DNA of 64,000 nt from the NCBI RefSeq assembly GCF_044324875.1, contig NZ_CP172185.1. The stretch is one strand, 5' to 3'. Below, piece after piece: positions 4,962 through 53,798 of this stretch. Position numbers and translations under genes: made by a program. This DNA comes from Escherichia coli. GTDB lineage: Bacteria; Pseudomonadota; Gammaproteobacteria; Enterobacterales; Enterobacteriaceae. The stretch's first letter is position 1. Each line of letters begins with the position of its first letter. Under the pieces are notes generated by a model. It made no database searches and was not told the origin of the DNA. It saw only the letters and a list, made by a program, of their open reading frames with translations.

Positions 4962-7204
<2,243 letters not shown>

Positions 7205-9495: not shown

Positions 9496-9599
9496 AACGC
9501 CTCCTGACGCAACAACTTACCCGCACAAAATAGAATTGTGCTGTACAAACGTCCAGTTGGAAAGGCATTTCCTGCGAGGCGCTACGCAAAAATACAAAA

Positions 9600-9616
9600 G
9601 GCCGAACGCGTCGGCC
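9600..9616 (-). terminator. Rho-independent terminator downstream of udp
   Basis: Perfect inverted repeat ggccga-acgcg-tcggcc; on the minus-strand transcript it is followed by a U-rich tract (cuuuuguauuuuug). Lies just 3' of the udp stop. Confidence 0.6.
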
Positions 9617-9635
9617 TTCAGACAGGAGAAGAGGA

Positions 9636-10397
9636 TTACAGCAGACGACGCGCCGCTTCCACCACGATTTTCACCGCTTGGCTTTCAGTTTGTTTCATCG
9701 TCTCAGCATTCGGGATCTCTTGCTGGGTGCGGTTAACGATAACGCCCGCCACCATACCCGCACGCAGGCCCTGACTTGCACACATGGTCAGCAGGGTTGC
9801 AGATTCCATTTCATAGTTCATTACGCCCATCGCCTGCCACTCTTCCATAGAACCTTTAAAGTGACGAACTACGCGACCAGAGTAAGTATCGTAACGTTCC
9901 TGGCCTGGGTAGAAGGTATCAGAAGAAGCCGTCACGCCAACGTGAGTCGTCGCGCCAATGGATTTCGCCGCTTCAACCAGCGCAGTCGTACATTCGAAAT
10001 CAGCGACAGCCGGGAATTCCAGCGGTGCGAAGTGCAAGCTCGCGCCATCCAGACGAACAGACGCCGTGGTAACCAGAACATCGCCAACATTAATATGCGG
10101 CTGAATAGCGCCCGTTGTACCGATACGCAGGAAGGTGCGAATGCCCAGCTGTGCCAGCTCTTCAACAGCAATAGAGGTAGACGGGCCGCCGATACCGGTA
10201 GAGCAGACGATAACAGGTTTACCATCCAGCTCTGCACGCCAGGTGGCGAATTCGCGGTGAGATGCCAGCTTAACCGGCTTATCCATCAGCGCGGCGATCT
10301 TTTCCACACGATCCGGGTCGCCAGGGACGATGGCAAGCGTAGCCCCTTGTAAATCGTTTTTAGTGAGGCCGAGATGAAAAACATCAGACTTGGACAT
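9636..10397 (-). CDS. udp: Uridine phosphorylase
   Basis: ORF track gives 255 aa; known Udp starts [19 protein letters not shown] (253 aa); PNP/UDP phosphorylase family. Confidence 0.9.
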
Positions 10398-47767: not shown

Positions 47768-48964
47768 ATGCTAAAAGTGTTATTGCTCTTTGTTTTGCTG
47801 ATTGCGGGGATAGTGGTTGGCCCGATGATTGCCGGACACCAGGGTTACGTGCTGATCCAGACCGACAACTACAATATTGAAACCAGCGTCACTGGCCTGG
47901 CGATTATTTTGATTCTGGCAATGGTAGTGCTGTTTGCCATTGAGTGGCTACTGCGGCGGATCTTCCGCACAGGCACACACACCCGTGGGTGGTTTGTCGG
48001 ACGTAAGCGTCGCCGTGCCCGTAAGCAGACCGAACAGGCGCTGCTGAAACTGGCGGAAGGCGATTATCAGCAAGTTGAAAAGCTGATGGCGAAAAATGCC
48101 GATCACGCTGAACAACCGGTGGTGAACTATCTGCTGGCTGCCGAAGCCGCGCAACAACGCGGTGATGAAGCACGCGCCAACCAACATCTGGAACGCGCAG
48201 CGGAGCTGGCCGGCAACGACACAATTCCGGTAGAAATCACCCGTGTACGTCTGCAACTGGCCCGTAATGAAAACCATGCAGCACGTCACGGCGTTGATAA
48301 GCTGCTGGAAGTTACGCCACGCCATCCGGAAGTATTACGTCTGGCGGAACAGGCGTATATCCGCACTGGTGCATGGAGTTCGCTGCTGGATATCATCCCA
48401 TCAATGGCAAAAGCCCACGTTGGCGATGAAGAGCATCGTGCAATGCTGGAACAACAGGCATGGATTGGCCTGATGGATCAGGCGCGTGCCGATAACGGTA
48501 GCGAAGGTTTGCGTAACTGGTGGAAAAACCAAAGCCGGAAAACGCGTCATCAGGTGGCGTTACAGGTGGCAATGGCGGAACATCTTATTGAATGTGACGA
48601 TCATGATACTGCCCAGCAAATTATCATCGACGGCCTGAAACGCCAGTATGACGATCGCCTGCTGCTGCCGATCCCGCGTCTGAAAACCAATAACCCGGAA
48701 CAGCTGGAAAAAGTGCTGCGCCAACAGATCAAAAACGTGGGCGATCGCCCGTTGTTGTGGAGCACACTGGGTCAGTCGCTGATGAAGCACGGCGAATGGC
48801 AGGAAGCATCGCTCGCCTTCCGCGCGGCGCTGAAACAACGTCCGGACGCCTACGATTACGCATGGCTTGCCGACGCGCTGGACAGACTGCACAAGCCGGA
48901 AGAAGCCGCAGCGATGCGTCGCGATGGCTTGATGTTAACGTTGCAGAACAACCCGCCACAGTAA
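47768..48964 (+). CDS. hemY: HemY (TPR-containing membrane protein, protoheme IX biogenesis)
   Basis: 398-aa ORF with N-terminal TM helices; conserved position. Confidence 0.9.
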   Translation: MLKVLLLFVLLIAGIVVGPMIAGHQGYVLIQTDNYNIETSVTGLAIILILAMVVLFAIEWLLRRIFRTGTHTRGWFVGRKRRRARKQTEQALLKLAEGDYQQVEKLMAKNADHAEQPVVNYLLAAEAAQQRGDEARANQHLERAAELAGNDTIPVEITRVRLQLARNENHAARHGVDKLLEVTPRHPEVLRLAEQAYIRTGAWSSLLDIIPSMAKAHVGDEEHRAMLEQQAWIGLMDQARADNGSEGLRNWWKNQSRKTRHQVALQVAMAEHLIECDDHDTAQQIIIDGLKRQYDDRLLLPIPRLKTNNPEQLEKVLRQQIKNVGDRPLLWSTLGQSLMKHGEWQEASLAFRAALKQRPDAYDYAWLADALDRLHKPEEAAAMRRDGLMLTLQNNPPQ

Positions 48965-48967
48965 TCT

Positions 48968-48998
48968 ATATCGCCTCGTTCAGAGGCGATATTTTTTT
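48968..48998 (+). terminator. Rho-independent terminator of the hemCDXY operon
   Basis: 10-bp stem atatcgcctc / gaggcgatat with loop gttca, followed by tttttt. Confidence 0.65.
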
Positions 48999-49004
48999 AC
49001 CAGG

Positions 49005-49604
49005 ATGTCAAAATTGCGCACGCCGTCCCGCTATCTTTTTCGCTTGCCATCGCATGAAATTACTCCTTTTCGGGCAACGCTCTTTTTAATCTTGTTGATA
49101 TGTGCCGCTCTGGCTGGCGTAAGTTGGCTGATTATTTCCTTTGTGCGTACGGGCAATACATTCATCTTCTGGTTAACACTTTTTATTGGGTATCTGATAG
49201 CTGCGGCGAAGCAGGAAAAAATCAAGCTCCTCAAGAAGTACCGAATCATGGCAGATAAACGTCGGGGACGCTCCATTTGCCAGTTCGCCCGCGAATTTGA
49301 CACCTACACCGTAGATACATGGGTGATTCGTGCGGTGTGGGATACCTTGCAAGGAAACGGTTATATCGATTACCCACTGCCACTGAAAGCCGATGATATA
49401 CTGGACGATGATCTGGATTTGGTGAGCGACGCAGTCGAGTTAGAAGAGCTGGTTGAAGATACCGCTGCTCGTTGCGGGCGCGATCTATGCGGAATAGAAG
49501 AGAATCCGTTTCTTCCCATCGTCACGGTAGGCTCTCTTGTAAGAGTGTTAAACGCGCAACCGATGACCCAGGAGCGACGTAACCAGTTCTTTATCCGGTC
49601 ATAA
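49005..49604 (+). CDS. Hypothetical protein (up to 199 aa; N-terminal TM segments, acidic C-terminal region); start uncertain
   Basis: Long ORF between the hemY terminator and glmZ. Predicted TM helices (ATLFLILLICAALAGVSWLIISF, FIFWLTLFIGYLIAAA) and an acidic tract (DDILDDDLDLVSDAVELEELVEDTAA). The first ATG abuts the terminator T-run, so a later start (e.g. ATG ~49248) is possible. Not recalled as annotated in K-12. Confidence 0.3.
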   Translation: MSKLRTPSRYLFRLPSHEITPFRATLFLILLICAALAGVSWLIISFVRTGNTFIFWLTLFIGYLIAAAKQEKIKLLKKYRIMADKRRGRSICQFAREFDTYTVDTWVIRAVWDTLQGNGYIDYPLPLKADDILDDDLDLVSDAVELEELVEDTAARCGRDLCGIEENPFLPIVTVGSLVRVLNAQPMTQERRNQFFIRS

Positions 49605-49809
49605 AAAAACGCCTGCTCTTATTACGGAGCAGGCGTTAAAACAGGTCTGTATGACAACAAGTGGGTGCTTCACTCAACGTTGTGTCCATGGTGTCTGATG
49701 AGGCATAAGCGACATCTGTCAGTGGACGATAAGCACCGTAAACGGCTCTGCGTCATTCCGGAGTTTATGAGGCACTAAGGCGAACATAAGAGATGGAATG
49801 AGCATCTAC
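49603..49809 (-). ncRNA. glmZ: GlmZ small regulatory RNA (activator of glmS translation)
   Basis: The reverse complement reads GTAGATGCTCATTCCATCTCTTATGTTCGCCTTAGTGCCTCATAAACTCCGGAATGACGCAGAGCC...ACGCCTGCTCCGTAATAAGAGCAGGCGTTTTTTT, matching my recollection of GlmZ with its terminator hairpin and U-tail; known to lie between hemY and aslA. Confidence 0.8.
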
Positions 49810-50233
49810 TCGTTTATTATGCCACAGAGAACCGGGAAATAACATCCCTTAACACTTGTTATGAGATAATTCTGTAATCCTCTTTGCTTCCTGAGTAATA
49901 ACTTCCTGAGTGAATATTTCTCCTGCGCACGATTCTACACATATATATAATGAATAATAAAAGTCATTCAATTAATAACATATATATTAATTGCCGTTAA
50001 AACTAAAAACAGCATCAATAATCAACGCGATATAACATCACCGCCTTACATATCACCTGCGCCAGAGGTAGGATTGAAAACGCTCTCCTGATTTTCCAAT
50101 TCATTTTCTGGATAAATAAATAATTTATTTTTATCACTATTATTTATGCAATCATCCTGTCAGGGAGAGGGATCTCAATTATCAATGCTTAATTACGTCA
50201 TCATTTTGACGACATGAAACCGGAGCATTTTGC

Positions 50234-51889
50234 ATGGAATTTTCGTTTTCACCCAAACTTCTTGTTGTAGCTGTCGCCGCCGCTCTTCCTCTCATGGCCA
50301 GCGCAGCAGATACCCCGTCAACCGCCACCGCACGCAAAGGCTTTGCCGGATACGATCACCCAAACCAGTATCTGGTTAAACCGGCGACCACTATTGCCGA
50401 CAACATGATGCCGGTGATGCAGCATCCTGCACAAGACAAAGAAACCCAGCAGAAGCTGGCAGAACTTGAGAAAAAAACCGGTAAGAAACCGAACGTGGTT
50501 GTTTTCTTGCTGGATGATGTGGGCTGGATGGATGTTGGCTTTAACGGCGGTGGCGTGGCGGTGGGTAACCCTACACCAGATATCGACGCCGTTGCCAGCC
50601 AGGGGCTGATTTTAACTTCGGCGTATTCTCAACCGAGTTCTTCCCCAACCCGCGCCACGATTCTTACCGGACAATACTCCATCCACCACGGCATTCTGAT
50701 GCCGCCAATGTACGGGCAACCGGGCGGTCTGCAAGGGTTAACCACTCTGCCGCAGTTGCTGCACGATCAGGGCTACGTCACTCAGGCCATCGGGAAATGG
50801 CATATGGGGGAAAACAAAGAGTCGCAGCCGCAGAACGTTGGCTTTGATGATTTCCGCGGTTTTAACTCGGTATCCGATATGTATACCGAATGGCGTGATG
50901 TTCACGTCAACCCGGAAGTCGCCCTGAGCCCGGATCGTTCTGAATACATCCAAAAACTGCCGTTCAGCAAAGATGACGTTCATGCCGTGCGCGGCGGTGA
51001 ACAGGAAGCCATTGCCGACATTACGCCGAAATATATGGAAGACCTGGATCAACGCTGGATGGAATATGGCGTTAAGTTCCTCGACAAGATGGCGAAGAGC
51101 GATAAGCCTTTCTTCCTCTACTACGGCACTCGCGGCTGTCACTTCGATAACTACCCTAATGCGAAATATGCGGGTAGCTCTCCGGCGCGCACCTCTTACG
51201 GCGACTGCATGGTGGAGATGAACGATATCTTCGCCAATCTGTATAAAGCACTGGAGAAAAACGGTCAGCTTGATAACACGCTGATTGTGTTCACCTCTGA
51301 TAACGGTCCGGAAGCCGAAGTTCCGCCGCACGGTCGCACACCGTTCCGCGGTGCGAAAGGTTCTACATGGGAAGGCGGCGTTCGTGTGCCAACCTTCGTT
51401 TACTGGAAAGGCATGATCCAACCGCGTAAATCTGACGGCATTGTCGATCTGGCGGATCTCTTCCCTACGGCGCTGGATCTGGCGGGGCATCCTGGGGCGA
51501 AAGTAGCGAATTTAGTACCGAAAACCACCTTTATCGATGGTGTGGACCAGACATCTTTCTTCCTGGGAACAAATGGTCAGTCTAACCGTAAGGCCGAGCA
51601 CTACTTCCTCAACGGTAAACTTTCTGCTGTGCGTATGGATGAGTTCAAGTATCACGTCCTGATCCAGCAACCGTACGCGTATACCCAGAGCGGGTATCAG
51701 GGTGGATTCACCGGCACAGTAATGCAAACGGCGGGATCGTCGGTGTTTAACCTGTACACCGATCCGCAGGAAAGCGACTCTATCGGCGTGCGCCATATCC
51801 CAATGGGTGTACCGCTACAGACCGAAATGCATGCGTATATGGAGATCCTGAAAAAATATCCACCACGCGCGCAGATTAAATCTGATTAA
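50234..51889 (+). CDS. aslA: Arylsulfatase AslA (putative; FGly-type sulfatase)
   Basis: 551-aa ORF with signal peptide and the sulfatase signature [15 protein letters not shown]; preceded by a strongly AT-rich promoter region (~49900-50230). Confidence 0.9.
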
Positions 51890-51979: not shown

Positions 51980-53215
51980 TTACTTATTCACCACCAGCAA
52001 ATGCGCCTGCATAATGTCGCTGGCCGGACGACCGTGCGCCAGCAAATCAACCATTGCTTTAAGATATGGCGGTAGATGGCGGAAATAACGCTGATACCCG
52101 GCACACAAATAATTCAGCCCGGGTTTGCCGCTGGCATCGAGCATAAAGCGGTGTTTCGGGCAGCCTCCCCAGCACGCTTTTAACACGTTGCAACTGCGAC
52201 ACTGTGCCGGTAACTGCTTGAATTTATCTTCACCAAATGCCTGCTGTTGCGGGGAATCAATCATTTCTGCAATTGTCTGCTGAAGCATATTCCCCAGTCG
52301 ATATTGCGGATAAACATAGTGATCGCAGGCGTAAACGTCGCCGTTGTGTTCAACAATCACCGAGCGCCCACAGGTTGGCTGATGATGGCAAACCGCTCCT
52401 GGCGCACCGACAAAATTGGCAAACGCCCATTCGATATTCATCACGAAAATATTGCCGACGTCGCGTTTGATCCAGTGGTCGAATATCGCCACCAAAAATT
52501 CACCGAACTCCTCGGGGTGTACCGACCATTCCGTCAGTTCGCCCTGAATATCGCCGGGACCATGTAGCTTAAGTCCAGCATGAACAGCCGTTTCATCAGC
52601 CAGGCGTTCGACCACAGGAATAAACTGGATAAACTCAACGCCTGCATCACACAGAAAATCATAGATTTGCAAAGGTTGTAACGCACTGGTGCGATTTACG
52701 CAGACCAGCGCGTTATAGTCGACATGATGTTTTTGCAGGAGCGTCAGGGCACGCATCACCAGCTTATGCGTTGGTCTGCCGCCTTTGGTCACGCGATATT
52801 GATTGTGGATCTCAGCCGGACCATCCAGCGATAACCCAACAAGGAAATGATTTTCTGCCAGAAATGCACACCATTCGTCATCAAGCAGAACGCCGTTAGT
52901 CTGGAAGCTGTTACTTATCTTCCTGCCAGCACCATATTTCGCCTGTAGCGCCACGGCACGGCGGTAAAAATCCAGCCCGAGTAACGTTGGTTCGCCGCCC
53001 TGCCAGGTAAAAGCCACTTCGTTTTGGGTTTCGCTGGCAGCGATATAGTGACGGACATACGCTTCCAGCGTGTCATCGTCCATATGCGTGACTGGCTTTT
53101 CGCGGTAAAGGGATTGTTTTTCGAGATAAAAACAGTAGTCACAGTTCAGATTACAATCGGAACCGCTCGGTTTCGCCATCACATGAAAAGCACGCGTTGG
53201 AACCTGTTGCAGCAT
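51980..53215 (-). CDS. aslB: Anaerobic sulfatase-maturating enzyme homolog AslB (radical SAM)
   Basis: ORF track begins at 53245; known start MLQQVPTRAFHVMAKPSGSDCNLNCDYCFY carries the CxxxCxxC radical-SAM motif. Confidence 0.85.
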   Translation of the reverse strand: MLQQVPTRAFHVMAKPSGSDCNLNCDYCFYLEKQSLYREKPVTHMDDDTLEAYVRHYIAASETQNEVAFTWQGGEPTLLGLDFYRRAVALQAKYGAGRKISNSFQTNGVLLDDEWCAFLAENHFLVGLSLDGPAEIHNQYRVTKGGRPTHKLVMRALTLLQKHHVDYNALVCVNRTSALQPLQIYDFLCDAGVEFIQFIPVVERLADETAVHAGLKLHGPGDIQGELTEWSVHPEEFGEFLVAIFDHWIKRDVGNIFVMNIEWAFANFVGAPGAVCHHQPTCGRSVIVEHNGDVYACDHYVYPQYRLGNMLQQTIAEMIDSPQQQAFGEDKFKQLPAQCRSCNVLKACWGGCPKHRFMLDASGKPGLNYLCAGYQRYFRHLPPYLKAMVDLLAHGRPASDIMQAHLLVVNK

Positions 53216-53329
53216 GGTCGCTCCTTGCCTGAAGTCATCCTTCAATAAGTTAAGGGCGAAATCATACCGTGGCGCAATGAGTTATTACGGGCGTTTATTG
53301 CGAAGGGAGAGTGACGAAATGCACAGAAA

Positions 53330-53361: not shown

Positions 53362-53438
53362 TGGTCGGCGAGAGAGGATTCGAACCTCCGACCCACTGGT
53401 CCCAAACCAGTTGCGCTACCAAGCTGCGCTACTCGCCG
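53362..53438 (-). tRNA. proM: tRNA-Pro (anticodon UGG)
   Basis: Reverse complement CGGCGAGTAGCGCAGCTTGGTAGCGCAACTGGTTTGGGACCAGTGGGTCGGAGGTTCGAATCCTCTCTCGCCGACCA; 77 nt, cloverleaf with TGG anticodon and encoded CCA. Confidence 0.9.
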
Positions 53439-53480
53439 AAATACTGCTTTTTGAATTTTTAGTTCAATTCTTTAAAGTCG

Positions 53481-53567
53481 TGGTGCGAGGGGGGGGACTT
53501 GAACCCCCACGTCCGTAAGGACACTAACACCTGAAGCTAGCGCGTCTACCAATTCCGCCACCTTCGC
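53481..53567 (-). tRNA. leuT: tRNA-Leu (anticodon CAG)
   Basis: Reverse complement GCGAAGGTGGCGGAATTGGTAGACGCGCTAGCTTCAGGTGTTAGTGTCCTTACGGACGTGGGGGTTCAAGTCCCCCCCCTCGCACCA; 87 nt type II tRNA with long variable arm. Confidence 0.9.
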
Positions 53568-53587
53568 ATTGTCACAACTTCTAATAA

Positions 53588-53664
53588 TGGGGTGGCTAAT
53601 GGGATTCGAACCCACGACAACTGGAATCACAATCCAGGGCTCTACCAACTGAGCTATAGCCACC
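53588..53664 (-). tRNA. hisR: tRNA-His (anticodon GUG)
   Basis: Reverse complement GGTGGCTATAGCTCAGTTGGTAGAGCCCTGGATTGTGATTCCAGTTGTCGTGGGTTCGAATCCCATTAGCCACCCCA, including the extra 5' G characteristic of tRNA-His. Confidence 0.9.
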
Positions 53665-53721
53665 ACTACAAATCTTGTTACGCGGTATTACTACCACCGC
53701 AGCTCAAGCGCCGGGACTAAA

Positions 53722-53798
<77 letters not shown>

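Follow-up and report, generated by a model that had tools for sequence, protein, structure and literature searches.

Results and Discussion

Organization of the Locus

The window analyzed here is a stretch of 64,000 nucleotides of DNA from Escherichia coli. The segment of interest begins with hemY (47768-48964, plus strand), which is followed on the same strand by a terminator-like hairpin at 48968-48992. An orphan open reading frame occupies 49005-49604 on the plus strand and encodes 199 residues when read from its ATG; RefSeq annotates 196 residues, starting from 49014. The stop codon of this frame lies over the U-tract of an RNA gene, glmZ, which is found on the minus strand at 49603-49809 and is convergent with hemY. 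The divergent upstream neighbor of glmZ is aslA (50234-51889, plus strand), and further upstream are an open reading frame of the size of aslB (51980-53245, minus strand) and the genes for tRNA-Pro, Leu, His, and Arg (53362-53798, minus strand). The canonical aslA-glmZ-hemY order is kept in the window.

The tRNA cluster contains the four genes Arg(ccg)-His(gtg)-Leu(cag)-Pro(tgg), as is the case in K-12. The O157 genome that was examined has five tRNA genes in this cluster, the additional one being a second Leu.

Identity of the RNA Gene

The whole window was scanned with the covariance models of Rfam 15 at their gathering thresholds. The minus strand from 49809 to 49603 (207 nt) was found to match RF00083 (GlmZ_SraJ) with a score of 218.4 bits (gathering score, 60; E = 3.4e-56). 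The match is untruncated and covers model positions 1-214 of 214. The first-pass annotation had read the minus strand as the full GlmZ sequence, with this Rfam accession and these same coordinates, and had proposed the GlmZ covariance model as the check that could overturn the reading. The scan bears out the identification by a wide margin.

Alignment with glmZ of K-12 MG1655 (b4456) gave 207 identical nucleotides out of 207, and position 49809 of the window is the base at which the annotated K-12 ncRNA starts. The 5' end of the primary transcript is assigned to the G at 49809. The length of 207 nt agrees with that reported for the primary transcript of GlmZ, for which a processed form of ~151 nt has also been described (PMC4152352). 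The K-12 gene (also known as SraJ or RyiA) and that of the window share all 207 nucleotides, their 5' end, promoter hexamers, and terminator, as well as aslA and hemY as neighbors. Of 5,426 complete E. coli genomes, 5,424 carry the gene at an identity of 99% or more, each as a single copy, and the identity is 100% among the 12 matches listed. The region 48900-50300 shares 99.6% identity with E. coli 042, which indicates that the window comes from an 042-like strain. The sequence from 49809 to 49603 is the gene for the GlmZ sRNA, a known and invariant member of the E. coli core genome.

The paralogue of GlmZ is GlmY (Tke1/SroF, b4441; RF00128 GlmY_tke1), and the locus could in principle encode this RapZ decoy instead of the base-pairing GlmZ. 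The two RNAs are placed in one Rfam clan, a lower-scoring overlapping match of this clan was suppressed in the scan, and they are identical at ~65% of positions (134/207) and share the architecture of stem-loops 1 and 2 that is recognized by RapZ (PMC4737144). The two differ in their mode of action, since GlmY serves as a protein decoy whereas GlmZ functions by base-pairing (PMC4152352). In the window, the GlmZ model outscores GlmY within the clan at 218 bits, and the RNA is 100% identical to K-12 glmZ. The locus adjoins hemY and aslA, and not glrK, upstream of which glmY is located. Both of the blocks that pair with glmS, UUGUUGUC and GACCUGU, are present together with a U7 tail, whereas K-12 GlmY has neither the two blocks nor the long U-tail. 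The assignment to GlmY is refuted by the clan competition, the identity to K-12 glmZ, and the pairing blocks, and we give it practically no chance of being correct.

Similarity between the paralogues was also apparent in the search for orthologues, where an 18-nt motif derived from GlmZ matched a GlmY gene in Erwinia. This gene, from Erwinia endophytica, scores 122.5 bits with RF00128 and is located at 9556-9718 on the plus strand of its locus. Short conserved motifs thus do not separate the paralogues, whereas the covariance models do.

Annotation of glmZ

The gene had been described as missing from the open reading frame track and as worth recording for that reason. No open reading frame of at least 40 residues covers 49605-49848, and those that overlap glmZ are limited to five chance frames of 24-37 residues. 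Among the 12 RefSeq matches listed, none has a feature under the glmZ match, and the annotations of O157:H7 PV15-279 and E. coli 042, which were inspected, contain nothing at glmZ. In the RefSeq record of K-12, glmZ (NC_000913.3, 3986432-3986603) is 172 nt in length, in contrast to the 207 nt given by the literature and the Rfam model; this feature is 35 nt short and ends before the terminator hairpin. An explicit record of glmZ therefore has annotation value, because tracks of open reading frames miss the gene and the RefSeq records considered here are either featureless at this position or, in K-12, too short.

A second sRNA match was obtained elsewhere in the window. RF02757 ("Erse small RNA") matches in full length with 315 bits at 6599-6850 on the minus strand, a stretch that takes in the 3' end of ubiJ and the beginning of ubiB. 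Of 5,426 E. coli genomes, 5,425 show conservation of this locus. It is probably the sRNA published as EsrE, which lies within yigP/ubiJ.

Promoter and Upstream Region

The published glmZ promoter of Escherichia and Shigella has the sequence ATGTTA-N15-tggCATAAT (PMC3045617). The predicted promoter in the window consists of the -35 hexamer ATGTTA at 49840-49845, an exact match to the published Escherichia motif, and the extended -10 element TGGCATAAT at 49816-49824 (CATAAT at -12 to -7), which likewise corresponds to that motif; both are on the minus strand. The combined pattern ATGTTA-N15-TGGCATAAT, at 49845-49816, occurs once in the window with 0 occurrences expected by chance, and the -10 hexamer ends 6 nt upstream of the 5' G. 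A simple sigma-70 scan missed this promoter because its -35 element is weak, and it was located by means of the published motif. The sole upstream difference from K-12 and O157 is a G at 49832 (position -23, within the promoter spacer), where both of these strains have an A.

In K-12, mutation of the -35 element cut the expression of glmZ drastically, and mutation of the -10 element abolished it (PMC3045617). Deletions and point mutations in the same strain identified a single constitutive sigma-70 promoter that is independent of GlrR and sigma-54 (PMC3045617). A search of the aslA-glmZ spacer for the GlrR site TGTC-N10-GACA, with up to one mismatch, did not find one. Direct reading of TGGCATAATAAACGAG revealed that a -24-like TGGCA of the sigma-54 type is kept, but without the -12 TTGC. 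As judged from these motifs, the glmZ promoter of the window is of the Escherichia type, which is defined as a single sigma-70 promoter free of sigma-54, GlrR, and IHF elements; it is driven by sigma-70 only and has no GlrR sites. A scan of the whole window with the sigma-54 consensus at 3 mismatches was uninformative (287 matches versus 341 expected) and was set aside.

The intergenic region between aslA and glmZ (49850-50230) is AT-rich, with a GC content of 0.31 (at 49850-50149) versus ~0.53 in the flanking genes. Two promoter-like sites are found within it on the minus strand, at 50178-50136.

Fold, Terminator, and Comparative Structure

The minimum free energy of the single GlmZ sequence was determined to be -60.8 kcal/mol, with z = -3.3 relative to dinucleotide shuffles. 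Two stem-loops at the 5' side are delimited by the consensus structure and by covariation. Stem-loop 1 (nt 1-65; 49745-49809, minus strand) is the putative RapZ-binding module, a role assigned from the cryoEM work on the K-12 RNA (PMC9841335). Stem-loop 2 (nt 73-146; 49664-49737, minus strand) is the central one and, given the identity of the two RNAs, would decide whether RapZ-dependent cleavage by RNase E takes place (PMC4737144, PMC9841335). The single-stranded region that follows (nt 147-173; 49637-49663, minus strand) is unpaired in the 14-species consensus fold. It holds the glmS pairing site, and it is predicted to contain the Hfq contact and the RNase E site as well, the latter at approximately nt 151 (position 49659 of the window). 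The RNA ends with the intrinsic terminator (stem-loop 3) and an oligo-U tail at 49603-49637 on the minus strand. The terminator stem-loop had been noted before from the letters alone, and we find it to be composed of an 11-pair stem with 7 G-C pairs at 49637-49608, followed by a T-run ending at 49603 that supplies a U7 tail. The oligo-U tail of GlmZ is a determinant for Hfq (PMC4737144).

Orthologues were collected by a search for the exact pattern AACGTTGAGTGANGCNCC in one genome per species. This search returned 120 loci, mainly from the Enterobacterales, with a few chance matches in unrelated MAGs. Fourteen diverse loci were then scored with Rfam; 13 were full-length GlmZ (136-219 bits), and one, from Erwinia, was GlmY. 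The 13 GlmZ loci are from E. albertii, Salmonella, Enterobacter, Citrobacter, Pluralibacter, Yersinia, Pectobacterium, Serratia, Brenneria, Acerihabitans, Proteus, Morganella, and Providencia.

A 14-sequence Enterobacterales alignment was folded with RNAalifold, which gave the three expected stem-loops and left the region between the helices unpaired. Standard pairs were found in 98.5% of the cells of this alignment versus 34-43% when the partners were slid by 1-3 columns. Changes on both sides were observed in 13 of the 48 GlmZ pairs, and compensatory changes in 6 of the 10 pairs of the terminator stem. None of 500 shuffles matched the observed pairing, the count of compensatory pairs, or the covariation score. 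The seed core GACCUG is unchanged in all 14 orthologues. The architecture of stem-loop 1, stem-loop 2, single-stranded region, and terminator stem-loop 3 is conserved with compensatory changes.

The comparative data also bear on the proposal that the real product of the region is a small protein and not an RNA. The five frames of 24-37 residues that overlap glmZ would be the candidates, but frames of these lengths are expected by chance. The substitutions between species keep base pairs and not reading frames, insertions and deletions of lengths not divisible by three are found throughout the GlmZ alignment, and the covariation backs an RNA structure. A protein product is so improbable on these grounds that it can be disregarded.

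Pairing with the glmS Leader

Two blocks of the RNA are predicted to pair with the leader of glmS. Block A, UUGUUGUC (nt 150-157; 49653-49660, minus strand), is complementary to glmS -29 to -22 in a duplex prediction with the K-12 leader, which was taken from the region between glmU and glmS. Block B, GACCUGU (nt 163-169; 49641-49647, minus strand), is complementary to glmS -40 to -34, also by duplex prediction. The complementarity thus amounts to 8 + 7 nt, or 15 nt in two blocks, within glmS -40 to -22. These 15 nt coincide with the published site for GlmZ, which is located on the left half of the inhibitory stem covering the ribosome-binding site of glmS (PMC4152352). In 5,404 E. coli records, the 63-nt stretch of glmS that contains the target has an identity of 99% or higher.

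General measures of complementarity were less informative. When nt 141-175 of GlmZ, which include the single-stranded region, were folded with the glmS leader, the two-block site was recovered, yet 17 of 200 shuffles were equally good and the result is not significant. For the whole molecule, Smith-Waterman complementarity was equaled or exceeded by 136 of 150 shuffles, and its best path missed the known site. RNAduplex calculations with the whole molecules and a 221-nt glmS leader returned meaningless, very long duplexes interrupted by large loops (-77.8 kcal/mol for GlmZ and -85.8 kcal/mol for GlmY) and were dropped as a test. Because these generic statistics are non-significant, the case for pairing with glmS rests on the agreement with the site mapped in an identical RNA. 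The predicted pairing is consistent with the published site and is statistically unproven.

The Orphan Gene beside the Terminator

The major difference from the K-12 locus is found immediately 3' of GlmZ. The distance from the GlmZ U-tract to hemY is 51 bp in K-12 and O157 versus ~640 bp in the window. Identity with K-12 ends 3 nt beyond the U-tract, and the differing K-12 sequence is ~45 bp. The spacer between terminator and hemY, ~50 bp in K-12, is therefore ~640 bp with the orphan gene in the window. The gene is absent from K-12, the host in which all of the GlmZ experiments were conducted.

The encoded protein is WP_001260227.1, a RefSeq "hypothetical protein" whose N-terminal third is hydrophobic and whose C-terminal part is acidic. 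No significant family was returned for it by searches against Pfam, NCBIfam, and PADLOC, and its homologues are confined to Escherichia (E. coli, E. albertii, and Escherichia sp.) in the sources that name them. The gene was found in 693 of 5,426 complete E. coli genomes at 93.5-99.6% identity, with the value of 93.5% in ST131-type strains.

The TAA stop codon of the orphan frame (49602-49604) shares two positions with the GlmZ U-tract, namely the final two bases of the tract. Since no plus-strand terminator was found after the orphan frame, its transcripts could run antisense into glmZ, and one can ask whether the convergent gene, inserted at the terminator, impairs termination or shuts glmZ off through transcriptional interference, so that glmZ would be a silent relic in this strain. 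The RNA itself, the promoter hexamers, and the terminator hairpin, U7 tail included, are, however, intact and the same as in K-12. The arrangement is also maintained in all 693 genomes at the identities given above, which implies a long coexistence of the two genes. Any antisense transcription is probably weak, because the strong terminator of hemY (48968-48992) precedes the orphan frame and a search for a sigma-70-like promoter of the frame found none. We regard a silenced glmZ as very improbable.

Neighborhood of glmZ across the Enterobacterales

In all 89 loci in which hemY was captured, this gene is oriented convergently with glmZ. The convergent synteny of glmZ with the hemCDXY cluster has been described previously (PMC3045617). 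The spacer between glmZ and hemY is usually 13-120 bp, and in several lineages it measures 0.5-1.5 kb and contains cargo that is unrelated from one lineage to the next. In the Enterobacter/Phytobacter type, the cargo is a polytopic membrane protein of ~400 residues; in Brenneria, a protein of 225 residues; and in Providencia, Moellerella, and Proteus, hydrophobic peptides of 75-105 residues. The long spacers with unrelated cargo imply that lineage-specific genes have been acquired repeatedly at this position, and the glmZ-hemY spacer looks like a recurrent insertion hot spot in the Enterobacterales.

On the other side of glmZ, other genera differ from E. coli. GlmZ of Salmonella, Yersinia, and most other Enterobacterales belongs to the same family (136-219 bits) and has the same fold, the GACCUG seed, and a convergent hemY. 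In these genera, however, the tRNA operon argX-hisR-leuT-proM is directly upstream of glmZ, without aslBA between them. The operon was found 0.15-0.6 kb upstream of glmZ in Salmonella, Citrobacter, Enterobacter, Pluralibacter, Serratia, Proteus, Providencia, and Morganella. In Brenneria it is ~8 kb from glmZ, with other genes between. AslA homologues were found in 8 of 125 loci, including those of E. coli, K-12, and E. albertii. The position of the tRNA operon beside glmZ elsewhere makes aslB-aslA look like a lineage-limited insertion between the operon and glmZ.

Proposed Mechanism

The explanation that we propose for the locus as a whole, and hold to be nearly certain, is that it is the glmZ gene of an 042-like strain, from which a sigma-70-driven 207-nt RNA would activate glmS under the control of RapZ, RNase E, and GlmY. 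The first-pass annotation had outlined the same mechanism (activation of glmS translation, control through RapZ and RNase E, and GlmY as the decoy), and it agrees with the published work (PMC4152352, PMC4737144, PMC9841335). No observation made here contradicts the explanation.

In this mechanism, the constitutive sigma-70 promoter would drive synthesis of the 207-nt RNA, which would fold into two 5' stem-loops, a single-stranded region of ~27 nt, and the terminator hairpin with its U-tail. Hfq, bound to the single-stranded region and the U-tail, would promote the pairing of blocks A and B with glmS -40 to -22. The pairing would open the hairpin that masks the ribosome-binding site of glmS, and more glucosamine-6-phosphate synthase, the enzyme at the start of cell-wall sugar synthesis, would be made. 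When glucosamine-6-phosphate is plentiful, the adaptor RapZ, on stem-loops 1 and 2, would present the single-stranded region to RNase E. The cut, within the pairing sequence near nt 151 (approximately 49659 in the window), would remove the pairing site. When glucosamine-6-phosphate is scarce, the paralogue GlmY would sequester RapZ, and full-length GlmZ would accumulate. The steps that involve Hfq, RapZ, RNase E, and GlmY are taken from the published work on these components (PMC4737144, PMC9841335, PMC4152352).

The analysis itself demonstrates that the RNA belongs to the GlmZ family and is identical to the K-12 sequence, and it shows the promoter motif, the covarying structure, the complementarity to glmS, the terminator, and the synteny. 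Expression of the RNA, the high-affinity binding of Hfq, the binding of RapZ, cleavage by RNase E to the ~151-nt form, and the activation of glmS are inferred for the 042-like strain because its RNA is 100% identical to the K-12 GlmZ of those studies. The genes glmS, rapZ, glmY, hfq, and rne are located outside of the window, and their presence in the strain is assumed from species-wide conservation, which was checked for glmS.

Significance

GlmZ is a central regulator of the synthesis of cell-envelope precursors, and it contributes to the intrinsic resistance to inhibitors of GlmS (PMC4908143). Its mechanism has already been solved to the level of cryoEM, and the locus described here adds nothing new to it scientifically. 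Of mild interest is only that the genes found directly 3' of GlmZ vary between strains. It is conceivable that in ~13% of E. coli genomes (the 042/ST131 type) read-through from the orphan gene, which may encode a membrane protein, proceeds antisense to the terminator and seed of GlmZ and could tune the termination, stability, or availability of the sRNA. We consider such a regulatory consequence unlikely, since the sRNA is untouched, as are its promoter and terminator. If it were true, antisense read-through from the orphan gene would make glucosamine-6-phosphate homeostasis strain-dependent.
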